Assembly (NCBI GenBank): GCA_964016885.1
Contig: OZ024748.1
Coordinates: 9,486,001 to 9,550,000, forward strand
DNA: 64,000 nucleotides
Direction: 5' to 3'
Source: Eledone cirrhosa
Lineage: Eukaryota
The notes under the pieces are model-generated. The model was not told the DNA's origin. It worked only from the letters and a program-made list of their open reading frames with translations, and made no database searches. A program made the position numbers and the translations under genes. Below, piece by piece: positions 4,734 through 58,678 of the stretch (position 1 is the first letter of the stretch; each line of letters opens with the position of its first letter).

Positions 4734-5533
4734 CTATTGACTGTAGGTTTCGCTCTGTATTACTGTGTAGCGCCAAAGGTCTCGGTCCAGTGACATTGTC
4801 TTAGAGAGATGTAAGTGTGTGAGGTCGGAATTTATCAGATCATCCCAGGTTTTTCTGGGTCTACCTACTCCGTAACTACCATCAATTTTGATCACCCTGC
4901 ACTTTTTTATGCAGCTGTCGTCTTTCATGCACATCACGTGACCATACCAACGTAGTCTTCTCTCAAGTAAACAACATCTGATTCCTCTTATTCCTAATTT
5001 CTCATTTAGTTCATTTATGCTTTGCCGTTCACATATATTACTATTACACATCCAACAGAGCATGCATGCTTCATTCCTTTCCAGTCTACGCAGGTCCTCT
5101 GCACGTAATGCCCATGTCTCACTGCCATGTAGCATTGCTGTTCGTATACAGGCATCATACAATCTGCTTTCATTTTTAGAGAGAAACCTTTTGTGTCCAA
5201 CAGCGGTATAAGCTCTGTGAACTTTTTCCATCCCGTTCTGACTCTGGCTACTGTACTTTCAGAACACCCTCTACCACTGCTGATTTCGTCACCCAGGTAA
5301 CGGAAAGTGTCTACTATTTCTATAGAGCCATCTGGGCAATGGAAGGAGCTAGTATCCTTTGGACACTTGCTACTTATTGCACCTGAGCATTGGCCACATA
5401 TAAAGTCTACGTTCTTAGATAGTTTACCTGTGATCCCATTACATCTTTTATGTACCCATACTTTGCATTTGGGACATAAAATGGAATTTCTGCCTACTCC
5501 TTTCCTATACAATGAGCATGACCATTTGCCTGA
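4734..5533 (-). pseudogene. Frameshifted 3' fragment of a related RTE LINE
   Basis: ORFs 5015..5512 and 4734..5231 match the PHD finger and C-terminus of the 1039-aa ORF. Confidence 0.9.
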
Positions 5534-5626
5534 ATAAATATATCTTAACGGTTCAAGTTTTTCCAGAAAAACTTAACTGTTAAGATCTCCTTACTGGATA
5601 TGTCAATATTTATAAAACAAACTTTG

Positions 5627-6935: not shown

Positions 6936-17044
<10,109 letters not shown>

Positions 17045-17730: not shown

Positions 17731-20700
17731 ATACCATGCGGTATTCTAATCCTATTGTATCTCTCTCAGTTATTTACCATGCGACCCTCAGTTCCTACCC
17801 CCCCCCCCCCCCTCTATGCACTTCTTTAAGGCTTACTACCCTGTCTTTAACCTAATTCATTCAATCTGAAAATATTGAAGAGATAAGACACTTTGCCATT
17901 CTTCTCTGCTAAAATGTACCACTGAGCTGATTCAAATTTTCCCAGCCAGCCATCCACCTAATCTACGAAGGTATTTTAGCCTACATATTGTCGTTAATAT
18001 TATGATGTTCCCTGCTGTATTAGCGTTAAATTTTCCCTGCTGTATTAGCGATAAATTTTCGAGGGTTTCTCTTAGTAGCTTTTTTCATGACGTTATTATT
18101 GTTAATTTTACTGATGTAGTATTAACTTGGATATTTACCATGCGACCCTCAGTTCCTACCTCACAATTTCCCTCCCCCCCACCCCCACACACCACCATAG
18201 TCTATTCGACCAATCAAACCTAGCATGCCATTTCCACTGCTGCTGCTGCTACTACCTGCCTAACTAACTCTCTCCTCCTCTGGCGCATCCCAACACACCC
18301 TGCCATTACCCCACCACCACTGTCCTTCTAGCCCTCAATTTTCCCACCGTTAGGGATGGATGAGCTGGGAATACACGAGCAACTCTGAATCAATAGATGA
18401 AATATGAATCTGCGAGCTACCAAGCACCCACGTGAAGCGCCAACCCAGAGACCCTCCCCTACGAGTGTCGACAAATGCCCAAAACTCCGAGTTGGTACCA
18501 TCAATGTAGGCTCAATGAAAGGAAGAGCAGGAGAAATCGTAGAAATGCTAGAGCGAAAGGAAGTTGATGTATGCTGTGTGCAAGAGACTAGATGGAGAGG
18601 AGGGTCTGCTAGAGTCCTTGTAGGAAAAAGCCAGTGCTACAAATTTTTCTGGGTGGGAAATGACGATGGGATGGGTGGTGTAGGTATACTATTAGCTGAC
18701 AAGTGGGTAGATAAAGTAATCTCAGTGTACAGGGTAAATGCAAGAATCATTAAACTCAGACTAGTCCTGAATAAGACAATTACCACAATAATATCAGCTT
18801 ACGCACCCCAATCGGGGCTGCCAGACGAACTTAAGGATAGGTTTTACGAGTCCCTAATACACACTACTGCTCTAACAGACGACAAGGACTTCCTAATCAT
18901 TGCAGGAGATTTTAACGGACACGTAGGTAAACACTGCGACGGCTTCAATAGAGTACATGGAGGCCATGGAGTTGGCACAAGGAATGAGGAAGGATTCAGA
19001 CTTCTAGAATTCTGCGACGCCAATGACATGTCGATATGTAACACAAACTTTAAAAAACCCGACAACCACCTGATCACCTATAGATCAGGGGAGCACTCTA
19101 GTCAGTTAGATTTTATCCTCATCAGAGGACGTGACAGATGGACGGTCGTAAACACAAAAGCCTTCCCTAGTGAGGAATGTACATCCCAACATAGCTTAGT
19201 TGTCAGCGACCTCACGGTCAGAACTAGACGAGCCCTGAAACAGAGGCCAACCTGGAGAAGAAAGATCTGGAAGCTGAAAGTCCCCTCAACCAGTAACAGA
19301 TTTAAAGATATTTTACTCAACGCCTACGACAGTAAAGAAGAACAGATAGAGACATTTAACGTAGAAGAGAACTGGGAGTTCCTAAAAAATAACTTACTAG
19401 AGGCGACGGATGAGGTTTGTGGCTGGAGTAAGACCTCAAGCAGGAGGAGAGTGACTTGGTGGTGGAACAATAAGGTAGATGAAGCAGTCAAGGCCAAGAG
19501 ACAGGCATGGAAAGAATGGAAGAACGGGGGGAGCAGGGTACATTACATAGAGACCAAGAGGGAAGCTAGGCGACAAGTATACTTAGCTAGGAGGGAAGCA
19601 GAGGATAGAAAATTCAAGCATGTTTTACAACGTGAGGACCAGAAACAGGAGGTATTCAAGATTGCGAGGCAGTGTGTCAGAGATAGTTGTGATGTCATTG
19701 GAGAGAAGTGTATCCGGAATGATAAAGGTGAGCTTGCCCTCACAAGTGCTGAGAAGAAAGATGCATGGAAGAGTCATTATGATAGATTACTAAATGAGGA
19801 GAATGCATGGGAAGAAGAGACCCTACCCCACGTAGACCCTATAGAGGGACCAGCAGTACAAGTCAGCGGCAGCGTAGTAAGTAAGGCAATCAGAGATATG
19901 AAGATAGGGAAGGCAACCGGTCCATCGGGTATAGCTGCCGAGATGCTGAAGGCATCTGGGTCTGTAGGTCACACTATAACCACACGTATCGTTAACCAGG
20001 TAATACTAGAGGGGGCCATACCAAAAGATTGGTGCAGTAGCATCATTGTCAACTGCTACAAAGGTAAAGGCGATGCACTAGATAGAGGAAACTATAGAGG
20101 TATAAAGTTGATGGACCAGGTCATGAAAGTAACAGAAAGAGTTATAGCACAGCTGATTAGGGACCGGGTGAATATAGACGAGATGCAATTTGGGTTTGTT
20201 CCAGGGAAAGGCACCACTGATGCGCTCTTCCTTGTGAGGCAATTACAGGAAAAGTACCTAGCTAAAAGTAAGCCACTCTACTTGGCATTTGTCGACCTTG
20301 AGAAAGCCTTTGACAGAGTTCCACGTGCAGTAATCTGGTGGGCTCTTAGAAAACTAGGAGTAGATGAATGGCTTGTGAAAGCGGTACAAGCCATGTATAG
20401 GGGAGCAGTCAGCAAAGTTAGGATTGGCAATGAGTATAGCGAGGAATTTAGCGTACAGGTTGGGGTCCACCAGGGCTCTGTTCTTAGCCCTCTCCTGTTC
20501 ATCATAGTCCTGCAGGCAATAACGGAGGAGTTTAAGACCGGATGCCCATGGGAACTCCTGTATGCTGATGACCTCGCACTCATAGCTGAATCTATGGTAG
20601 AACTAGAGAATAAATTCCAAACCTGGAAGCAGGGACTAGAGAGAAAGGGCCTCAAAGTCAACATGACAAAGACTAAGGTCCTTATAAGTAGACGAGAAAA

Positions 20701-21825
20701 CAGAACCCAGATCCCCTCAGGGAAATGGCCTTGCTCAGTATGTAGGAAAGGTGTAGGTAGGAACTCCATTCTTTGCCCCAAATGCAAACAATGGGTACAC
20801 AAGAGATGTAGCGGGATCTCAGGAAGCTTAATTAAGAATGTAGGATTCACATGCAGCAGCTGTGCTGAAACAGCAAGCAAACAGCCACAGGAAACAAGTA
20901 CCACCAATCTCTGGGAGGGCCCTGTAGAAACAGTAGACAGCTTCTGCTACCTAGGTGACCGAATTAGCAACGGAGGTGGGTGCTCAGAAAGTACAATAAC
21001 TAGGGTAAGAACGGGATGGAAGAAGTTTAGGGAACTACTACCACTGCTAGCTGCAAAAGGCTTCTCCCTCAGAATGAAAGGCAGACTGTATGATGCGTGT
21101 ATCCGAACAGCGATGTTGCATGGTAGTGAGACCTGGGCGCTGAAGGTGGAAGACTTACGTAGATTAGAGAGAAACGAAGCCTGCATGCTCCGATGGATGT
21201 GTAACAGTAATATACGTGAACGACAAAGCATAAATGAATTGAGAGAGAGACTGAGCATAAGAGGAATCAAATGCTGCGTGCAGGAGAGGCGGTTACGCTG
21301 GTATGGACATGTGATGCGTATGAAGGATGACAGCTGCATAAAAAGGTGCAGAGCACTAGAAGTTGATGGAAACCGCGGAGTGGGGAGACCCAAGATGACT
21401 TGGGATGAGGTGATAAAAGCCGACCTTACCCAACTACACCTCTCAAAGTCAATGACACACGACCGTGACTTCTGGCGTCACGCAGTAATACAGGGTACCC
21501 GACCTCCCATGGGTACATGCTGAAGCATATAAACAATATGCCCCCCCCCCCCACCGCAAGGTGGTCGTGGAGGTGCCACGGCAAAAAAGCACCCAGCCCA
21601 CACTGTAAAGTGGACGTGTAGGCGCCACGAAAAAGCACCCAGCACTCACTGTAAATGAGGTTGGTGTTAGGAAGGGCATCCAGCTGTAGAAATCAAGCCA
21701 GATCAGTTCCTGTATGAGCAAGGCATGGTCAGCCGACCAGACACTGCCCACAACAGGACAACCCGTCTAACCCATGCTAGCGTGGAAGAACGGACGTAAA
21801 ACGGTGATGATGATGATGATGATGA

Positions 21826-25679: not shown

Positions 25680-26880
25680 AGGGACCAGATTCGCTAAGGT
25701 AAAAAGAAACGTGTCCCGAATGTGCAACCCCAAAGAACTAGAGAAACACATACAGCACTTCATCCACTGTATGCAGTTCTCTGGTTACAATCAGAGAGAT
25801 AAAATCAGAGTATATAGAGGAGCCAGAACCAAATGGGAAAAAATGGTAAATAATGATACAAATGGGACCTGCCCCTTGTATAGGAGCAAATTTTGGAATA
25901 GAATAGAAAGAACTAGGAATAAGGTTAATAGAAGAAACTCATGGTATGATAGCAATAAATACCAGAGTGTAATGTTCATCAATACAACCCCTAGAGGTGA
26001 ATTAGCTTACAAATTTAGAAGGGCCCTAGATAAACATAAACTCAATATTAAGATAGTAGAAAGACTAGGTACCTACATAAAAACACTTATTAGCAATACA
26101 TACCCTTTTCAAAGACCTCCCTGTATAGATAAGAAATGTATAATCTGTAAATTAAGCCCTCATATTAACTGTAAAACTAGAAATGTAGTATATAGCATAA
26201 GATGTACTGAAGGACAGTGTAGAGATAAGAATATAGTGTACATATGTAGTATAGGAGAACGGATAAATGAACACTGGCGAGAGCTTCAAGATAGAAAAGA
26301 ATCATCTGTACTCCACCAACATGCTAAAATCGAACATAAGGGTAAATTAGAGAACATAGAAATAAAAATAGAATCTACACACAGAAAAGACGCAATGTTT
26401 AGACAAATCACAGAGGCAATAAACATAAATGAACTCCAACCAAAATTAAATAGAAAACATGAATGGAATAGCAACACCACAACTTACAATTAAGGACAAA
26501 ATGAAAACACACACATAGAATAAAGAACCAACCAGTAACATGTAAATAAACAAATAAATAAACAAATATAAACACACACAGACATCCGGATGTAACACAT
26601 GCGCAAACTAAGCACAAAACACACACAAAAACAAGATGGCGTAGGACAGAACAAAGGAGAGGCACAAAAACAGAGAAAAGAATCCCCAGTCACTGAAGAG
26701 GTCACAGAATGTGTGACGAAAGAACTTTGACAATATATGAACAACCGTCTGGTTGTGGAACCAACCAACCGGAAATTTATAAATTCTTAAATTTATAAGT
26801 TTAATTTATAATAAATAATTTGGAGTGAAAGCAACTGGTGCGTGTGGTTCTTATTGGCAACATGACCCTCCCAAAGCATA
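25680..26880 (+). mobile_element. 5'-truncated Penelope-like element: RT C-terminus + GIY-YIG endonuclease (ORF 25711-26493), followed by a hammerhead-bearing 3' repeat
   Basis: CIICK...CKTRNVVYSIRC...YI(GET missing)...ERINEH...SVLHQH...RQITEAINI..LQPKLNRKHEW. Confidence 0.85.
26689..26731 (+). ncRNA. Hammerhead-like motif downstream of the Penelope GIY-YIG ORF
   Basis: GTCA-CTGAAGA-G-(GTCACA/TGTGAC)-GAAA-GAAC-TT^-TGAC. Confidence 0.6.
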
Positions 26881-30163: not shown

Positions 30164-32113
30164 AGAGAGAAAAAGAAAAAATAGAGAGATATAGATAGAG
30201 ATAGAGAGAGAAAATAGGTAGTTGGGCACCAGTTGAATGACGTATCAATGATATATTTATTTATTTATTTATTTAGTTCTAGTATTAAGGTAGAGAGAGA
30301 TATATGTGGTTAGGAGAGAAAGCAGCCGTTACATAGAGAGAAAAGAAAAATATCCAGTGATAAACGAGGCGGATTTAAAACATTATGTTTCATCAATCTA
30401 AAATATCATTTCGTATGAATTAGGTATTATAATGTAAATATAAATAGACATACTATAAAATTAACTTACTGATCCACCAAAAATTTAGCACAAAATATTA
30501 ATAGAATAAATAATAGGAATTTAAAACCTAGCCAAAATACCGATAATAGCCTAAATAATATCCAAGTAAACAAATGTAACTGTAGAGATAGATCTAAATT
30601 TCCGTTAAATAACAATTGCTTAGTTAAAAATATAATATACAACTGTAATGTTAAAACGGACTTAAATTCTTTTAACTATATTGGTTCCACCTCGACAGAA
30701 TTTAAACTTCGCTATAATAACCACAAGAATTCTTTCACGGATCCAAGCAAAAAATCTTCAACATCACTATCAGGCTTACTCTGGCAACTTAAGCATGATA
30801 ACGTTGGATATTCGACGGCTTGGAATATAGTCTCAAGAGGGATTCCTTTTAATTCATCTTCTGAGACATGTGACCTCTGCGCGGAGGAGATATTCTTTAT
30901 ACTAAAATCTAAAAATTCCCTTAATTTACGGACAAATTTATTCAGTTGCTGCAGACATAGATTGAACTCAACTTTTAAATATAAATATAAATTTAAAATG
31001 TAGTATATTTACTTATGATTTGTAATTATTTATGAAACTCGCCGATAAATCTTTCGATTTCTTTTTTTTTTTTTTTTTTTTTTAAACATTCTTCATTAAT
31101 AATTAAACTACCCTAAAAGATGATGCTCCAAATATATCGAATACATTTTACACTAGATAAACTTCTATAATAAATACAAGACCATCTGTAGATCAAATGG
31201 GTATCCTAAACTTTTGGAATGATTTCTGCTAGACAGGATTTGGTGAATAATTTTGGTTTTGTTTGCTTTTGATTCTGATGCTTATAATGAACTTGGCAAT
31301 ATATTGTCAAATAAATTTGATGGGTAGATTTCTGTGGTTGATTTGCGGGGCATACTGTTTTATTTTTTAATTATTTTTTAATATTTTTTATTTTTATTAT
31401 TTTTAATATTTTTATTGATATATTGATATCTGTTGTCTATTTTATGCTTGAACAATAATCATGTAGAGTAAAGACAAGAATATTATTGTTAAAATTAATG
31501 TAGACTCTATATATATTTGTGTGTATGTACACATATATGTATACTAGAATTTTTATAGCACAATGAGAATGTTTTCATGTGAAATGGGAATTTGCAGAGT
31601 TGATCACGTAAATTCACATGGATGTCTATAGTATCGAATCTGGGATAACCTTCTATTTTCTTTTTCTTTTTTCATGAAAGTGCATATATACTTATGTATT
31701 TCAATTTTTTTTTTTTGAAGTTTTTTAACTCAGTTCTGATTATAAACCTACGAATTTTAAACTAGACATATGATCATTATTTTTCACACATTATTGATAC
31801 CTGTCTCATTCAAGAATACTGATATTTACATTATAATACCTAATTCATACGAAATGATATTTTAGATTGATGAAACATAATGTTTTAAATCCGCCTCGTT
31901 TATCACTGGATATTTTTCTTTTCTCTCTATGTAACGGCTGCTTTCTCTCCTAACCACATATATCTCTCTCTACCTTAATACTAGAACTAAATAAATAAAT
32001 AAATAAATAAATATATCATTGATACGTCATTCAACTGGTGCCCAACTACCTATTTTCTCTCTCTATCTCTATCTATATCTATCTCTCTCTATTTTTTCTT
32101 TTTCTCTCTCTTT

Positions 32114-54388: not shown

Positions 54389-54554
54389 ATGAAGTGTGTC
54401 TTCCTTATTGCCTTGTGTGTTGTAGCAGCCAGCGCCATTGTTTGTCTACCAGGTGTCTGTAACTCTGTTAAATGTGCTGCAGTAGAAAACTGTGCTGATG
54501 GAAAACTTCACAAAACTTTTTGTGGATGTTGTGATACTTGTGTAAAGTATTTGA
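54389..54554 (+). CDS. Paralog B coding exon 1 (transcript exon 2, begins 54375)
   Basis: ttttag acceptor at 54373-54374, donor gtaagt at 54555. Confidence 0.9.
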
Positions 54555-54856
54555 GTAAGTTGATTCTTGTCAAAGATTTGATGGAGTGTAGAGCTAAATT
54601 GGGACAGAATCTTCAGTAAATCAGTATTAATGGGTGTCGAAACTGATACAAACATTGTTATTGGGGATTAGCAGAAATATTTTAGTGTCAGGTAAATGTT
54701 TTGCAGTATTTGTTCAGGCTCTTTACTTTCTGAGCTCAAACTTTCCTTTCACTCTTCCAGAGTTAATAAAATAAAATATCAATGAAATATCTCGATTGAT
54801 TTAATCTACTTTGGGTTCCCTCAAAGTCTTATGCTTAAATTAGAAACTACTACTAA

Positions 54857-54910
<54 letters not shown>

Positions 54911-57845
54911 CACCTCTAATGTTTTAGTGTTGTATCTATGTTATTTCTTATTATGACACCTTTCAGAGGAAGGAGACAGCTGTGTTCCTGAAGGATTACT
55001 TGGAATCCTTTTCACCAAGAAATGTGGTCTTGACTTAGTCTGTAGTAAACGTAGTATGACCTGCATCAGTAAGTAACTTTCTTGATGAGATTTTAATATT
55101 AAATGTAATGGTAAAGATGGTGGCTCAATGAACTAAATACTTCCTTCTATTCGTCTTAATTTCTAATTTTAAAACCTGTTACAGTCAAGCTAGCTTTTCA
55201 GCCATTCAAAGTAAATAAAATATATACCAGAGATATACTAAGGTCAACAGAAAGACACCATGCCTCTAACAGTATCTGTGGCTTGATGCCAAAGAGGAAA
55301 TAAACATTCACTCTGCTGATAATACTCTGTAAATTCCTTGTTTATGGGGAATTGGGGAATTGTCATACAAACACGTTTTGTGTCACTAAACACCACATAA
55401 ACACCATACAAACACGTATTTTGGTCACTAAACATCACATAAACACCATATGAACATGACATGTCTTGTGTCACTAAACACCATAGAAACACGACATGTC
55501 TTGTGTCACTAAACACCATAGAAACACGACATGTCTTGTGTCACTAAACACCACATAAACACCATACAAACATGTTTTGTGTCACTAAACGCCAGATAAA
55601 CACCATACAAACACGACATGTTTTGTGTCACTAAACACAACATAAACACCATACAAACATGACATGTCTTGTGTCACTAAACACAACATAAACACCATAC
55701 AAACATGACATGTCTTGTGTCACTAAACACCACATAAACACCATACAAACACGTATTTTGGTCACTAAACACCACATAAACACCATACAAACATGTTTTG
55801 TGTCACTAAACGCCAGATAAACACCATACAAACACATGTTTTGTGTCACTAAACAAAACATAAACACCATACAAACATGACAAGTCTTGTGTCACTAAAC
55901 ACCAGATAAACACCATACAAACACATGTTTTGTGTCACTAAACACCACATAAACACCATACAAACGAGATGTCTTGTGTCACTAAACACCACATAAACAC
56001 CATACAAACATGACATATTTTGTGTCACTAAATACCACATAATCACCATACAAACATGACATATTTTGTGTCACTAAACACCACATAAACACCATAGAAA
56101 CACGACATGTCTTGTGTCACTAAACACCACATAAACACCATACAAACATGACATTTCTTGTGTCACTAAACACCAGATAAACACCATACAAACACGACAT
56201 GTCTTGCGTCACTAAACACCACCTAAACTTTAGATATATTCTTTAACGTCTTTGGTTCAGTATATTTCATGAGACCAACCTCACAAAGTTGTATTTCATT
56301 CTAATTCTTGTTTCTCTTTTTTTTTTTAGAACCTTTAGCTTACACTAAAAAAACTTGTGTGCAACTGAAATCAGATACTGGGGATAAACATTTGCTTGGT
56401 GCCTTTATTCCCCATTGTGATACTGATGGTACCTTCTCACCTGTCCAATGCCATGGATCAAGGTAAGATATAGTTACCATGTTATAAATGTAATGTAATA
56501 GTTATAAATATATTTCTTCCGAATTGGTTCTTCCAGTTACAAGTAAAATCAATTTGATGAGCTTCCATTCAGGTTTTGTCCAGTTTTACTCACAATATTT
56601 CCACTAATTATCCCAATGGTAGACATATTTCAATATAAAACACAGAGTTATCTAGTGTGGAATTAGATAAATGTGAATCAAACTTCTTAATTCTTCCATT
56701 TCTCATGATCTACAGTAAAATATCTTTTAATTAATATATGATACATTTATATTAATTGTAAAACTGTGGGGGGTTTTTTCCTAACTTTGAAGATATCAAA
56801 TGTCCACAAATTATTTTAAATACCAAATTGTGATATGATTCAAAAGATAGTATTTGTATGATTGTCAAATGATATTTAATGACCCCTTTTCTCTTAACTT
56901 CTTAGCAATTAAACTGGCCGTATTCAGCCAGAATTTTCTCACCTCTTCAAACCGGCCGTAACTGGCTGCTCATTCCTATGTTAAGGTATTGTTTTCAAAA
57001 TAAATAAAATCAAAATCTCGTAAATTCGATATTATATAAGATAATTATGTGAAATAAAATGTTTACTATGAAAATACAATAGTAAATATAATGTAAATGC
57101 TAAAGGGTTAATGAAAAATCCCCTATTTTGTGGTATGTTTTATTGTTTTAGAATTATATGTATAACCACTATAGATGCTGTTTGAAGTGGGAAAAACCTA
57201 TATGTTTGTTTATTCCACTTTATATTACAATTTGATATAATTATAGAGAAAAGAGAATCTGTTTATTAACATTTCTTTCCATTTTCTAGGTGTTTCTGTA
57301 CCCACACAGATGGCACTGTTATCAGAGGATTTGGAGCAGCCATTCACAACAGTCAAGGAATGAATTGCAGTAAGTAATATCCTTTTTATGTCCACTTTTC
57401 ATGTTGGCATGGGTTGGACAACGACTTTTCATGGTTGGAAACCAGATATGTTGGAGCAGCCTATCTTGTTCAATATGTTCCACATTAGGAATAGTTTCTA
57501 TGACTGGCATTATATATCATCAAATATGATTGATTATATATATATATATGTGTGTGTGTGTATGTAAATGAAGTTTATTATATGTGTAAATGAAGTACTA
57601 TTACGTTTATGCGCGTGGTTGAGTGTGTGTATGTTTATGTTCTGGATATTTATTTATATATTTTTTCCCCTCAATCTTTTTTGCCCGTTTTTTCAGCCTC
57701 ACTTTCATATTTCCTAAATATTGTTTTCAAATCCATATTTAATAAAAACACCATGTTATTTATTCATTCTGACGACTGAAGACAGACATAACATCTGCCT
57801 TCAAGAAACCACTAGTAAATGAAATAATTATCTTATGTTGTTTAT

Positions 57846-57905
<60 letters not shown>

Positions 57906-58294
57906 GTTAAGTTAAAACAATGAAATAAAAATTCAAGTCATTAGAAATATACTTCACTGCTTTACGATCGTTTCTGGGTGATAATAATACATCGTACGCA
58001 TATTTCGTTATCGATCTATGTAAGGTTAGTTACAAAATATAAGATAAGAAGTATATTTACCTACATATATATCATCAGCCGTTGTCAAAAGCAATGAGAA
58101 TTTTATTCACAATCAATAGTTAATTGAGTTCTATGACTTTATTTGGAGGTAGCTGAAGAACAAACCAATCTAATGTTTTTTTGCCATATGATGTTAAGAT
58201 GAAATATAACTCACTTTAGTTGAGGTAATGACCCTTTGAAAGGAATGGTTGAATGGTGTTAAAAATAGAATTACTATAAGAACCTATGAGGAAA

Positions 58295-58361
<67 letters not shown>

Positions 58362-58678
58362 CAAAGAAAGATAAAATGTATGTTTTTCTGATGAGTTCAG
58401 AATAAGGCTGAAACATGTCCAAAGTTTTATTATTAGCTAAATCTTTGATTTTCTCTACACTCTACATTGTTTTATGTTGTTTTTTTGTTTCAGATTGTGC
58501 CCGCCAAAAGTTTGTATATGAGAAGACTGGTTTGATTGGTAGATTATTCTGGTGTGAACCCAATGGTAATTACAACAAAATTCAATGTACTGGAAGTGCT
58601 TGTTATTGTGTTGACGATATTGGTAAACAAGTAGGTCAAGCAGTTCATATCACCCACAAGGAATCTATAAACTGTTAA
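54389..58678 (+). CDS. Paralog B: secreted 221-aa IGFBP-N/FPI-like + 2x thyroglobulin type-1 protein; coding exons 54389-54554, 54967-55068, 56330-56462, 57290-57369, 58494-58678
   Basis: Same exon sizes (166/102/133/80/185 nt), same phases and all cysteines conserved relative to paralog A. Canonical splice sites; the ORF ends in TAA at 58676-58678. Confidence 0.92.
54967..55068 (+). CDS. Paralog B exon 3
   Basis: tttcag / gtaagt; KEGDSCVPEGLLGILFTKKCGLDLVCSKRSMTCI. Confidence 0.9.
55370..56225. repeat. 33-46-bp minisatellite in intron 3 of paralog B (short version at 13779-13925 in A)
   Basis: Unit gtgtcactaaacaccacataaacaccatacaaacatgacatgtctt. Confidence 0.9.
56330..56462 (+). CDS. Paralog B exon 4 (TY1 N-half)
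   Basis: T-tract AG / gtaag; ...SDTGDKHLLGAFIPHCDTDGTFSPVQCHGSR. Confidence 0.9.
57290..57369 (+). CDS. Paralog B exon 5 (TY1 C-half)
   Basis: ttctag / gtaagt; [26 protein letters not shown]. Confidence 0.9.
57763..57823 (+). ncRNA. Type I hammerhead, sense strand in intron 5 of paralog B
   Basis: TTCATT-CTGACGA-C(TGAAG..CAGA/TCTG..CTTCA)A-GAAA-C CACTA-GTA^-AATGAA. Confidence 0.7.
58494..58678 (+). CDS. Paralog B exon 6 (TY2 and stop)
   Basis: tttcag acceptor; the 3' part of ORF 58415..58678. Confidence 0.9.

Follow-up and report, generated by a model that had tools for sequence, protein, structure and literature searches.

A 64-kb window of Eledone cirrhosa DNA (the whole stretch analysed here) carries one gene twice, and the two copies, A and B, encode proteins that are 88% identical. 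The best explanation of their differences, to which we give a probability of about 55%, is selection toward different target ranges, acting chiefly on the second of two thyroglobulin type-1 (TY) domains, TY2, and on the tip of loop L2 in the first, TY1, amid partial gene conversion. Judged from their sequences, both proteins are likely secreted and likely block papain-like proteases through three-loop wedges, and their specificities likely differ.

Two copies of a five-exon gene

The window is AT-rich, microsatellite-laden eukaryotic DNA. Gene A lies on the minus strand (17044-6936) and gene B on the plus strand (54389-58678), in inverted, divergent orientation and 37 kb apart; no third copy was found within the 64 kb. 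Both have five coding exons, GT..AG at every intron, a frame open over 221 codons and all 26 cysteines in common. The introns measure 787/412, 2313/1261, 507/827 and 5836/1124 bp (A/B), and most intron and flanking DNA cannot be aligned between the copies. The domain order is the same in both: a likely signal peptide, a 12-cysteine N-domain (C19-C88) resembling AmFPI-1 and the IGFBPs, then TY1 (C99-C160) and TY2 (C162-C221), each with six cysteines in 1A spacing.

In B (plus strand), coding exon 1 (54389-54554) encodes the likely signal peptide (about residues 1-16, judged from the sequence and its homologues) and the first half of the N-domain, and exon 2 (54967-55068) its second half. Exon 3 (56330-56462) covers the linker and the helix, L1 and L2 of TY1, exon 4 (57290-57369) the second strand and L3 of TY1, and exon 5 (58494-58678) the whole of TY2 with the stop codon. 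The exons of A (minus strand) lie, in the same order, at 16879-17044, 15990-16091, 13544-13676, 12957-13036 and 6936-7120, the fourth being identical in the two copies. Single exons of A and B matched the Pfam model PF00086 at 31-33 bits against a gathering score of 20.6 (E 3.5e-8 for exon 3 of B, 3.7e-8 for exon 5 of A). The core signature CWCV reads CFCT in TY1 and CYCV in TY2, and the family to which A and B belong mostly has C-[YF]-C. Loop L1 of TY1 keeps G113 and P117 in both copies. In TY2, L1 keeps G176 but is shorter and lacks the Pro of the usual G-x-F-x-P-x-C, so that TY2 may not inhibit. Many TY domains are described in PMC7863939 as having no demonstrated inhibitory role.

Several other features share the window. 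A stop-free frame of 1040 codons at 18401-21520 (+), about 1.4 kb upstream of gene A, has endonuclease, reverse transcriptase and PHD matches and is, by its sequence, a LINE-type retrotransposon; fragments with reverse transcriptase or PHD matches occur at 8290-8727 (+, in intron 4 of A) and 5018-5572 (-). Two further stop-free frames, at 25681-26490 (+) and 30473-31000 (+), of 270 and 176 codons, have no Pfam match and look like retroelement remnants. A tandem repeat of about 44 bp is common to intron 2 of both genes (B 55370-56230, about 860 bp; A 13777-13927, about 150 bp), and in A other tandem arrays lie at 16400-16780 (intron 1) and 14940-15360 (intron 2). Intron 3 of both copies contains a very high-copy genomic repeat (56877-57149 in B; depth up to 4e5).

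Clustering and rate excess fall in different exons

A and B differ at 26 residues, through 29 replacement changes over 523 sites as against 4 silent changes over 140 sites (Nei-Gojobori). From coding exon 1 to 5, the replacement/silent counts are 1/1, 4/2, 6/0, 0/0 and 18/1, the last altering 15 residues. An earlier note on this DNA had proposed that substitutions cluster in binding loops and that A and B have different targets. The residues that it quoted are all there. In the long N-domain loop, which reads GTPLTTK in A and GILFTKK in B, we confirmed four replacements in codons 69-73 (ILFTK in B, 55005-55019; TPLTT in A, 16053-16039). The contrast of HEAT with HGSR after the QC of TY1 likewise held (codons 131-134, the last split by an intron); codons 132-134 are GSR in B (56455-56462) and EAT in A (13551-13544). 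The differing residues ascribed to the first TY2 loop are present in codons 169-180, but at 58517-58552, outside the interval 55004-56462 in which the note had placed its finding. Six of the 11 residues encoded by codons 170-180 (58520-58552; end of the TY2 helix and loop L1) differ, as do 5/11 in codons 210-220 (58640-58672; the C5-C6 segment of TY2, presumably its L3 region).

Two of the earlier statements needed amendment. Six replacement and no silent changes had been counted in 'exon 4'; the counts are right, but the exon is the third coding one, and as this result is at chance level when taken alone (p 0.22) we dropped it as stand-alone evidence. The four glutamates of A replaced in B (E96K, E105D, E107G and E132G) are real, but the trend does not run in a single direction: A gained E132, and G170E is a change of the opposite sense.

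Clustering itself is real in coding exons 2 and 3. Among their 10 changes, 8 pairs lie within 2 codons (permutation p 0.0004-0.0009), and 4 changes in 5 codons have a p of 0.018-0.032; for the protein as a whole, permuted so that each exon retains its number of changes, clustering gives p 0.016. These statistics were chosen after the data had been seen. Within the TY2 exon there was no clustering (p 0.34-0.57), which counts against selection. A single multi-base mutation behind the N-loop cluster was ruled out, since the changes there polarise to both lineages.

As a neutral reference we used alignable non-coding DNA, in which 43/1456 sites differ between A and B, or 38/836 (4.5%) without two blocks (620 sites) around exon 4; UTR or intron ends in this reference may be constrained. 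Exons 2 and 3 did not exceed it (pN 5.4% versus 4.5%, p 0.37; omega 1.3-1.5 in a pairwise codon model, p 0.45-0.59). The TY2 exon did, with 18/147 replacement sites differing (12.2%) against 38/836 (p 6.5e-4) or against 9/287 local neutral sites (p 3.4e-4). Its omega was 2.8-3.1 in the codon model with the non-coding clock (p 0.0005-0.0011), which survives correction for five exons, and 4.5-5.3 with silent sites only (p 0.045-0.094). Compared with the 97-bp upstream block alone (12.4% divergence), the TY2 exon showed no excess (p 0.59). Exons 3 and 5 jointly have 24 replacement changes and 1 silent change (p 0.022), exon 1 has an omega of 0.16 with the non-coding clock (p 0.015), and the omega of the whole gene was not significantly above 1 (p 0.12-0.20 with silent sites only). 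The exons flagged in the earlier note thus show clustering without a rate excess, and the rate excess sits in the TY2 exon.

By way of scale, 15/60 TY2 residues differ between A and B, and 12 between the Octopus vulgaris homologue P0001 and P0009 of Argonauta. Eleven of the 26 A/B differences are at positions invariant in five octopod homologues. Family conservation of changed and unchanged positions did not differ in either direction (p 0.85 and 0.44).

Probable gene conversion and changes on both lineages

A tract of 394 bp in B (57156-57549, +), spanning coding exon 4 and flanking intron, is identical to 12777-13170 of A. At 4.5% divergence this has a chance of 1e-8, and the tract is likely the product of gene conversion. 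We ruled out that a distant third copy had converted exon 5, as silent changes would have come with it.

When the differences were polarised against P0001, 11/26 were new in A and 9 new in B, with 6 ambiguous and codon 180 altered in both. With changes on both lineages, neither copy is simply decaying, and one-way decay of either was ruled out. A and B form a supported pair in a quick tree.

We considered the possibility that relaxed constraint combined with patchy conversion accounts for the pattern by near-neutral drift, which would require no useful difference in specificity. Conversion would erase differences in the middle of homologous blocks and leave them piled up beside the non-homologous intron ends, that is, at the 3' end of exon 3 and in the 5' part of exon 5. 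The HEAT/HGSR codons do adjoin the end of A/B homology (56470), and exon 5 starts 11 bp after homology resumes; divergence of non-coding blocks is patchy, from 0 to 12.4%, and the identical tract is present. The whole-gene omega and the neutral rate of exons 2 and 3 fit this explanation too. Yet old, unconverted DNA should hold silent changes, and exons 3 and 5 together have a single one; the 3' flank differs at only 8/251 sites. Purifying selection on exon 1, retention of the cysteines and of the scaffold Gly, Tyr and Gln, and a loop tip in A that matches a recurring natural variant also speak against it. We regard relaxed constraint as unlikely, though it is the alternative that fares best against selection toward different targets.

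The closest homologues are from octopods (O. vulgaris, O. sinensis, O. bimaculoides and Argonauta hians) and have identical exon-sized blocks; gastropods, amphioxus and a crinoid share the layout. Two paralogues are present in each of O. vulgaris and O. sinensis, and neighbouring copies occur in other octopods as well. By their N-domains the pairs (P0001/P0003 versus P0002/P0007) are orthologous, but residue 154 follows species rather than orthology (E, E versus N, N), and within a pair TY1 is near-identical where the N-domains show 21-23 differences, so concerted evolution of the TY1 region likely recurs. The A/B pair may be this old duplication, homogenised, or a separate one. The O. vulgaris and O. 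sinensis paralogues are unlike one another in TY2 L3 and in the N-loop that also varies between A and B. Changes recurring between A/B and these pairs are P70L and V/I213, plus positions 180, 183, 203 and 220; the overlap of variable TY2 sites between A/B and the O. vulgaris pair (5/10) was not significant (p 0.09). A second Argonauta hians protein, P0012, has a signal-like start joined to TY1-TY2 without an N-domain; this may reflect an annotation artefact, a skipped exon or truncation of a paralogue.

Predicted fold and position of the changed residues

Positions of A and B in the fold were read off a model of the homologue P0001, built with a 46-row alignment (mean pLDDT 79; TY domains 82-92, N-domain 62-82). 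The model matched the p41 fragment 1icf_I (TM 0.68; Z 7.7, rmsd 2.5, 63 residues aligned) and, with a moderate score, AmFPI-1 3bt4 (Z 6.7, rmsd 4.5, 76 aligned). That these are TY domains with the wedge fold of p41 is thus supported by the Pfam match and the fold search. The model splits the variable residues. Residues 132-133 are predicted to form the turn between two strands at the tip of TY1 L2, and 173-180 to be TY2 L1, which puts the changes at 132-133 and 174-180 in wedge loops. In contrast, E96, E105 and E107 would lie in the linker and helix, off the loops; residues 105, 107, 165 and 170 are modelled as helical.

In PMC6584486, and also in PMC7863939, thyropin L2 is described as lying over the catalytic Cys and L1 as the likely specificity element; PMC6584486 has L1 entering the S2 pocket and locates Arg250 of p41 in L3. 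By match ranges the counterparts of Arg250 are approximately residue 151 of TY1 and residue 213 of TY2, which would put the changes at 210-220 near L3. With loop limits taken from secondary descriptions and match ranges, enrichment of changes in loops gave p values of 0.027, 0.049, 0.055, 0.057, 0.20, 0.20, 0.27 and 0.28 under eight definitions (p<0.05 in 2/8). Enrichment of the wedge loops is therefore borderline, a lean rather than a result. Three of the six wedge loops (TY1 L1, TY1 L3 and TY2 L2) show no A/B difference, and a third of the TY changes are off the wedge.

In the N-domain, residues 69-73 align through P0014 with residues 62-66 of AmFPI-1, which fall in what we take to be its reactive loop (46-66, with Lys54 presumably as P1). 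In that same alignment V62 stands opposite Lys54 of 3BT4 in both A and B, and no basic P1 residue (Lys or Arg) was found there.

B keeps the family G-S tip in TY1 L2 (G in 18/23 and S in 18/23 non-octopod rows), whereas the tip of A is E-A. We collected 313 short L2 loops from 166 proteins; G-S occurred in 152 of the loops and E-A, the third commonest tip, in 10 against 1.9 expected from independent letters; since the loop rows are related by descent, this excess yields no p-value. In a quick tree of 48 rows the E-A of A had an origin separate from that of the seven others; the tree has 4 changes, and no fewer than 2 origins are forced. In TY2 L1, M/L174, V/I175 and K/R177 are common family alternatives, and T178 and W180 are rare in the family. 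All cysteines and scaffold Gly, Tyr and Gln residues are retained in both proteins.

Selection might be real and the partner something other than a papain-like protease, for instance an insulin-like peptide, a microbial surface or a prey protein, in which case a shift in charge would outweigh the wedge. Net charge is indeed 0 in A and +6 in B (-4 versus +1 for TY1 alone), and the changes off the wedge fit such a partner. The arrangement of N-domain and TY domains recalls IGFBPs, whose N-domains were also among the fold matches, and the O. bimaculoides protein P0004 is named as an IGFBP N-terminal domain protein. PMC9273619 presents GmCP8 as an opsonin and M. sexta CP8 as inhibiting no tested protease. 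Against this, the IGFBP N-domains reached only Z 2.5-2.7, compared with 6.7 for AmFPI-1, and the IGFBP profile PF00219 matched 2/29 homologues where the amfpi-1 profile (PF12190) matched 9/29, at E values up to 0.1. No octopod protein matched PF00219, the best homologue scored 19.9 bits as against a gathering score of 28, and A and B have two TY domains where IGFBPs have one; PF12190 itself matched neither single exons of A and B nor P0001. Moreover, saxiphilin, which inhibits at nanomolar level, has G-x-F-x-P-x-C and Q-C-H-G-S features that are retained in TY1. A non-protease partner thus appears distinctly improbable, more so than drift under relaxed constraint.

Sequencing runs

Contigs of two runs, X1 and X2, from one sample that is possibly the assembly source, match B without a difference. 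Run X4, from a second sample, has depth over exons and repeats only; it carries the joint of exons 3 and 4 at the predicted GT..AG, which was absent from the other three runs. Exon-5 contigs of both types are present in X4 at similar depth (B-type 7.4, A-type 5.8), and the A-type contig departs from B at 12 positions, as many as separate A from B over that stretch. The sole X4 contig of exon 3 is A-type at 56376 and 56381 (E105/E107) with an apparently B-type 3' end, judged from the joint, and may represent a recombinant allele or variants merged into one. The HEAT motif did not appear in X4, which offers this one exon-3 contig, and contigs merge variants.

That A and B are alleles of one locus placed side by side by the assembler, or consensus errors, is very improbable: at about 11-12, the X1/X2 depth of the shared tract comes close to the A-type and B-type exon-5 depths added together, as two haplotypes might also produce, contig depth being no copy number, but the copies are inverted and 37 kb apart with unalignable flanks and unlike introns, B recurs letter for letter in X1/X2, the second sample has both exon-5 forms, and two neighbouring copies exist in other octopods too.

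What different target ranges would mean

If selection has moved A and B toward different target ranges, the change from G-S to E-A would place a carboxylate on the hairpin that in thyropins covers the catalytic Cys. In TY2, contacts at S2 and on the primed side would be remodelled by L/T178 and S/W180 together with the differences in L3, and gene conversion would likely keep the remaining parts of A and B alike.

A broader and rather doubtful proposal is that octopods keep a pair of three-headed inhibitors, each an AmFPI-like head with two thyropin heads, their scaffold kept uniform by conversion and single heads re-tuned by selection in each lineage. The L2 tip would then act as a switch with two states, G-S and E-A, found repeatedly in animal TY domains, and A would have thrown it, altering which proteases (of prey, of pathogens or its own) are blocked, possibly in salivary secretion.

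According to PMC10889554, p41 is the only thyropin solved in complex with a protease, so little is established about the rules that govern thyropin specificity. A and B, naturally occurring and 88% identical, have changes in L1, L2 and L3 that can be separated, which makes them suited to loop swaps as they stand; the E-A tip, being recurrent, is a specific, testable candidate determinant. The analysis also flags an animal family with an AmFPI-like domain and two TY domains whose members go under the wrong names in databases (nidogen, thyroglobulin or spider toxin). Our search of open-licence PMC and bioRxiv texts returned no report of this pair, of selection in thyropin paralogues, or of function or inhibition in this family.

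Comparison with known systems

A and B resemble thyropins (family I31: p41 1ICF, the saxiphilin Thy1 repeats, equistatin and tick IrThy) in their six-cysteine type-1A TY domains and p41-like wedge fold, a likeness drawn from sequence and predicted fold. The L1 and L2 motifs of TY1 match those of saxiphilin, and a tandem TY pair joined by a C-x-C motif is described for IrThy in PMC10889554, as in A and B. Unlike thyropins, A and B have an extra 12-cysteine N-domain, an L2 of 4 residues, shorter than that of p41, and a TY2 L1 without Pro.

The N-domain shares with AmFPI-1/CP8 (PF12190, 3BT4) the 12 cysteines, which PMC9273619 also gives for AmFPI-1, as well as a profile match (E 3.3e-5) and the fold similarity mentioned above. 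In A and B, by contrast, this domain is fused to two TY domains and Val replaces the Lys at the position of Lys54.

The octopod orthologues (CAI9734986-8, XP_029646879, XP_029646721-2, XP_052829860 and the Argonauta hians pair) have the same architecture, with TY2 identity of 70-80%, and also come as two paralogues with signs of conversion. They are labelled nidogen-2-like, thyroglobulin or U24-ctenitoxin-like. Their pairs keep TY1 L2 (HGSV) and TY2 L1 (KTGLIGKLF) identical, whereas A and B have changed exactly these motifs. A secreted TY protein of 227 amino acids (group 375) appears in the O. vulgaris posterior salivary gland proteome (PMC7693380); by its description, it may belong to the A/B family.

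Duplicated inhibitors such as serpins and trappins, as described in PMC3966226 and PMC2831891, likewise show coding change that outpaces introns and flanks, together with conversion. A and B differ from them in having a thyropin-type scaffold with a multi-loop surface, and in offering two sequences only for such tests. Rapid change at the reactive sites of inhibitors has long been known, and A and B would bring it to a thyropin-type family.
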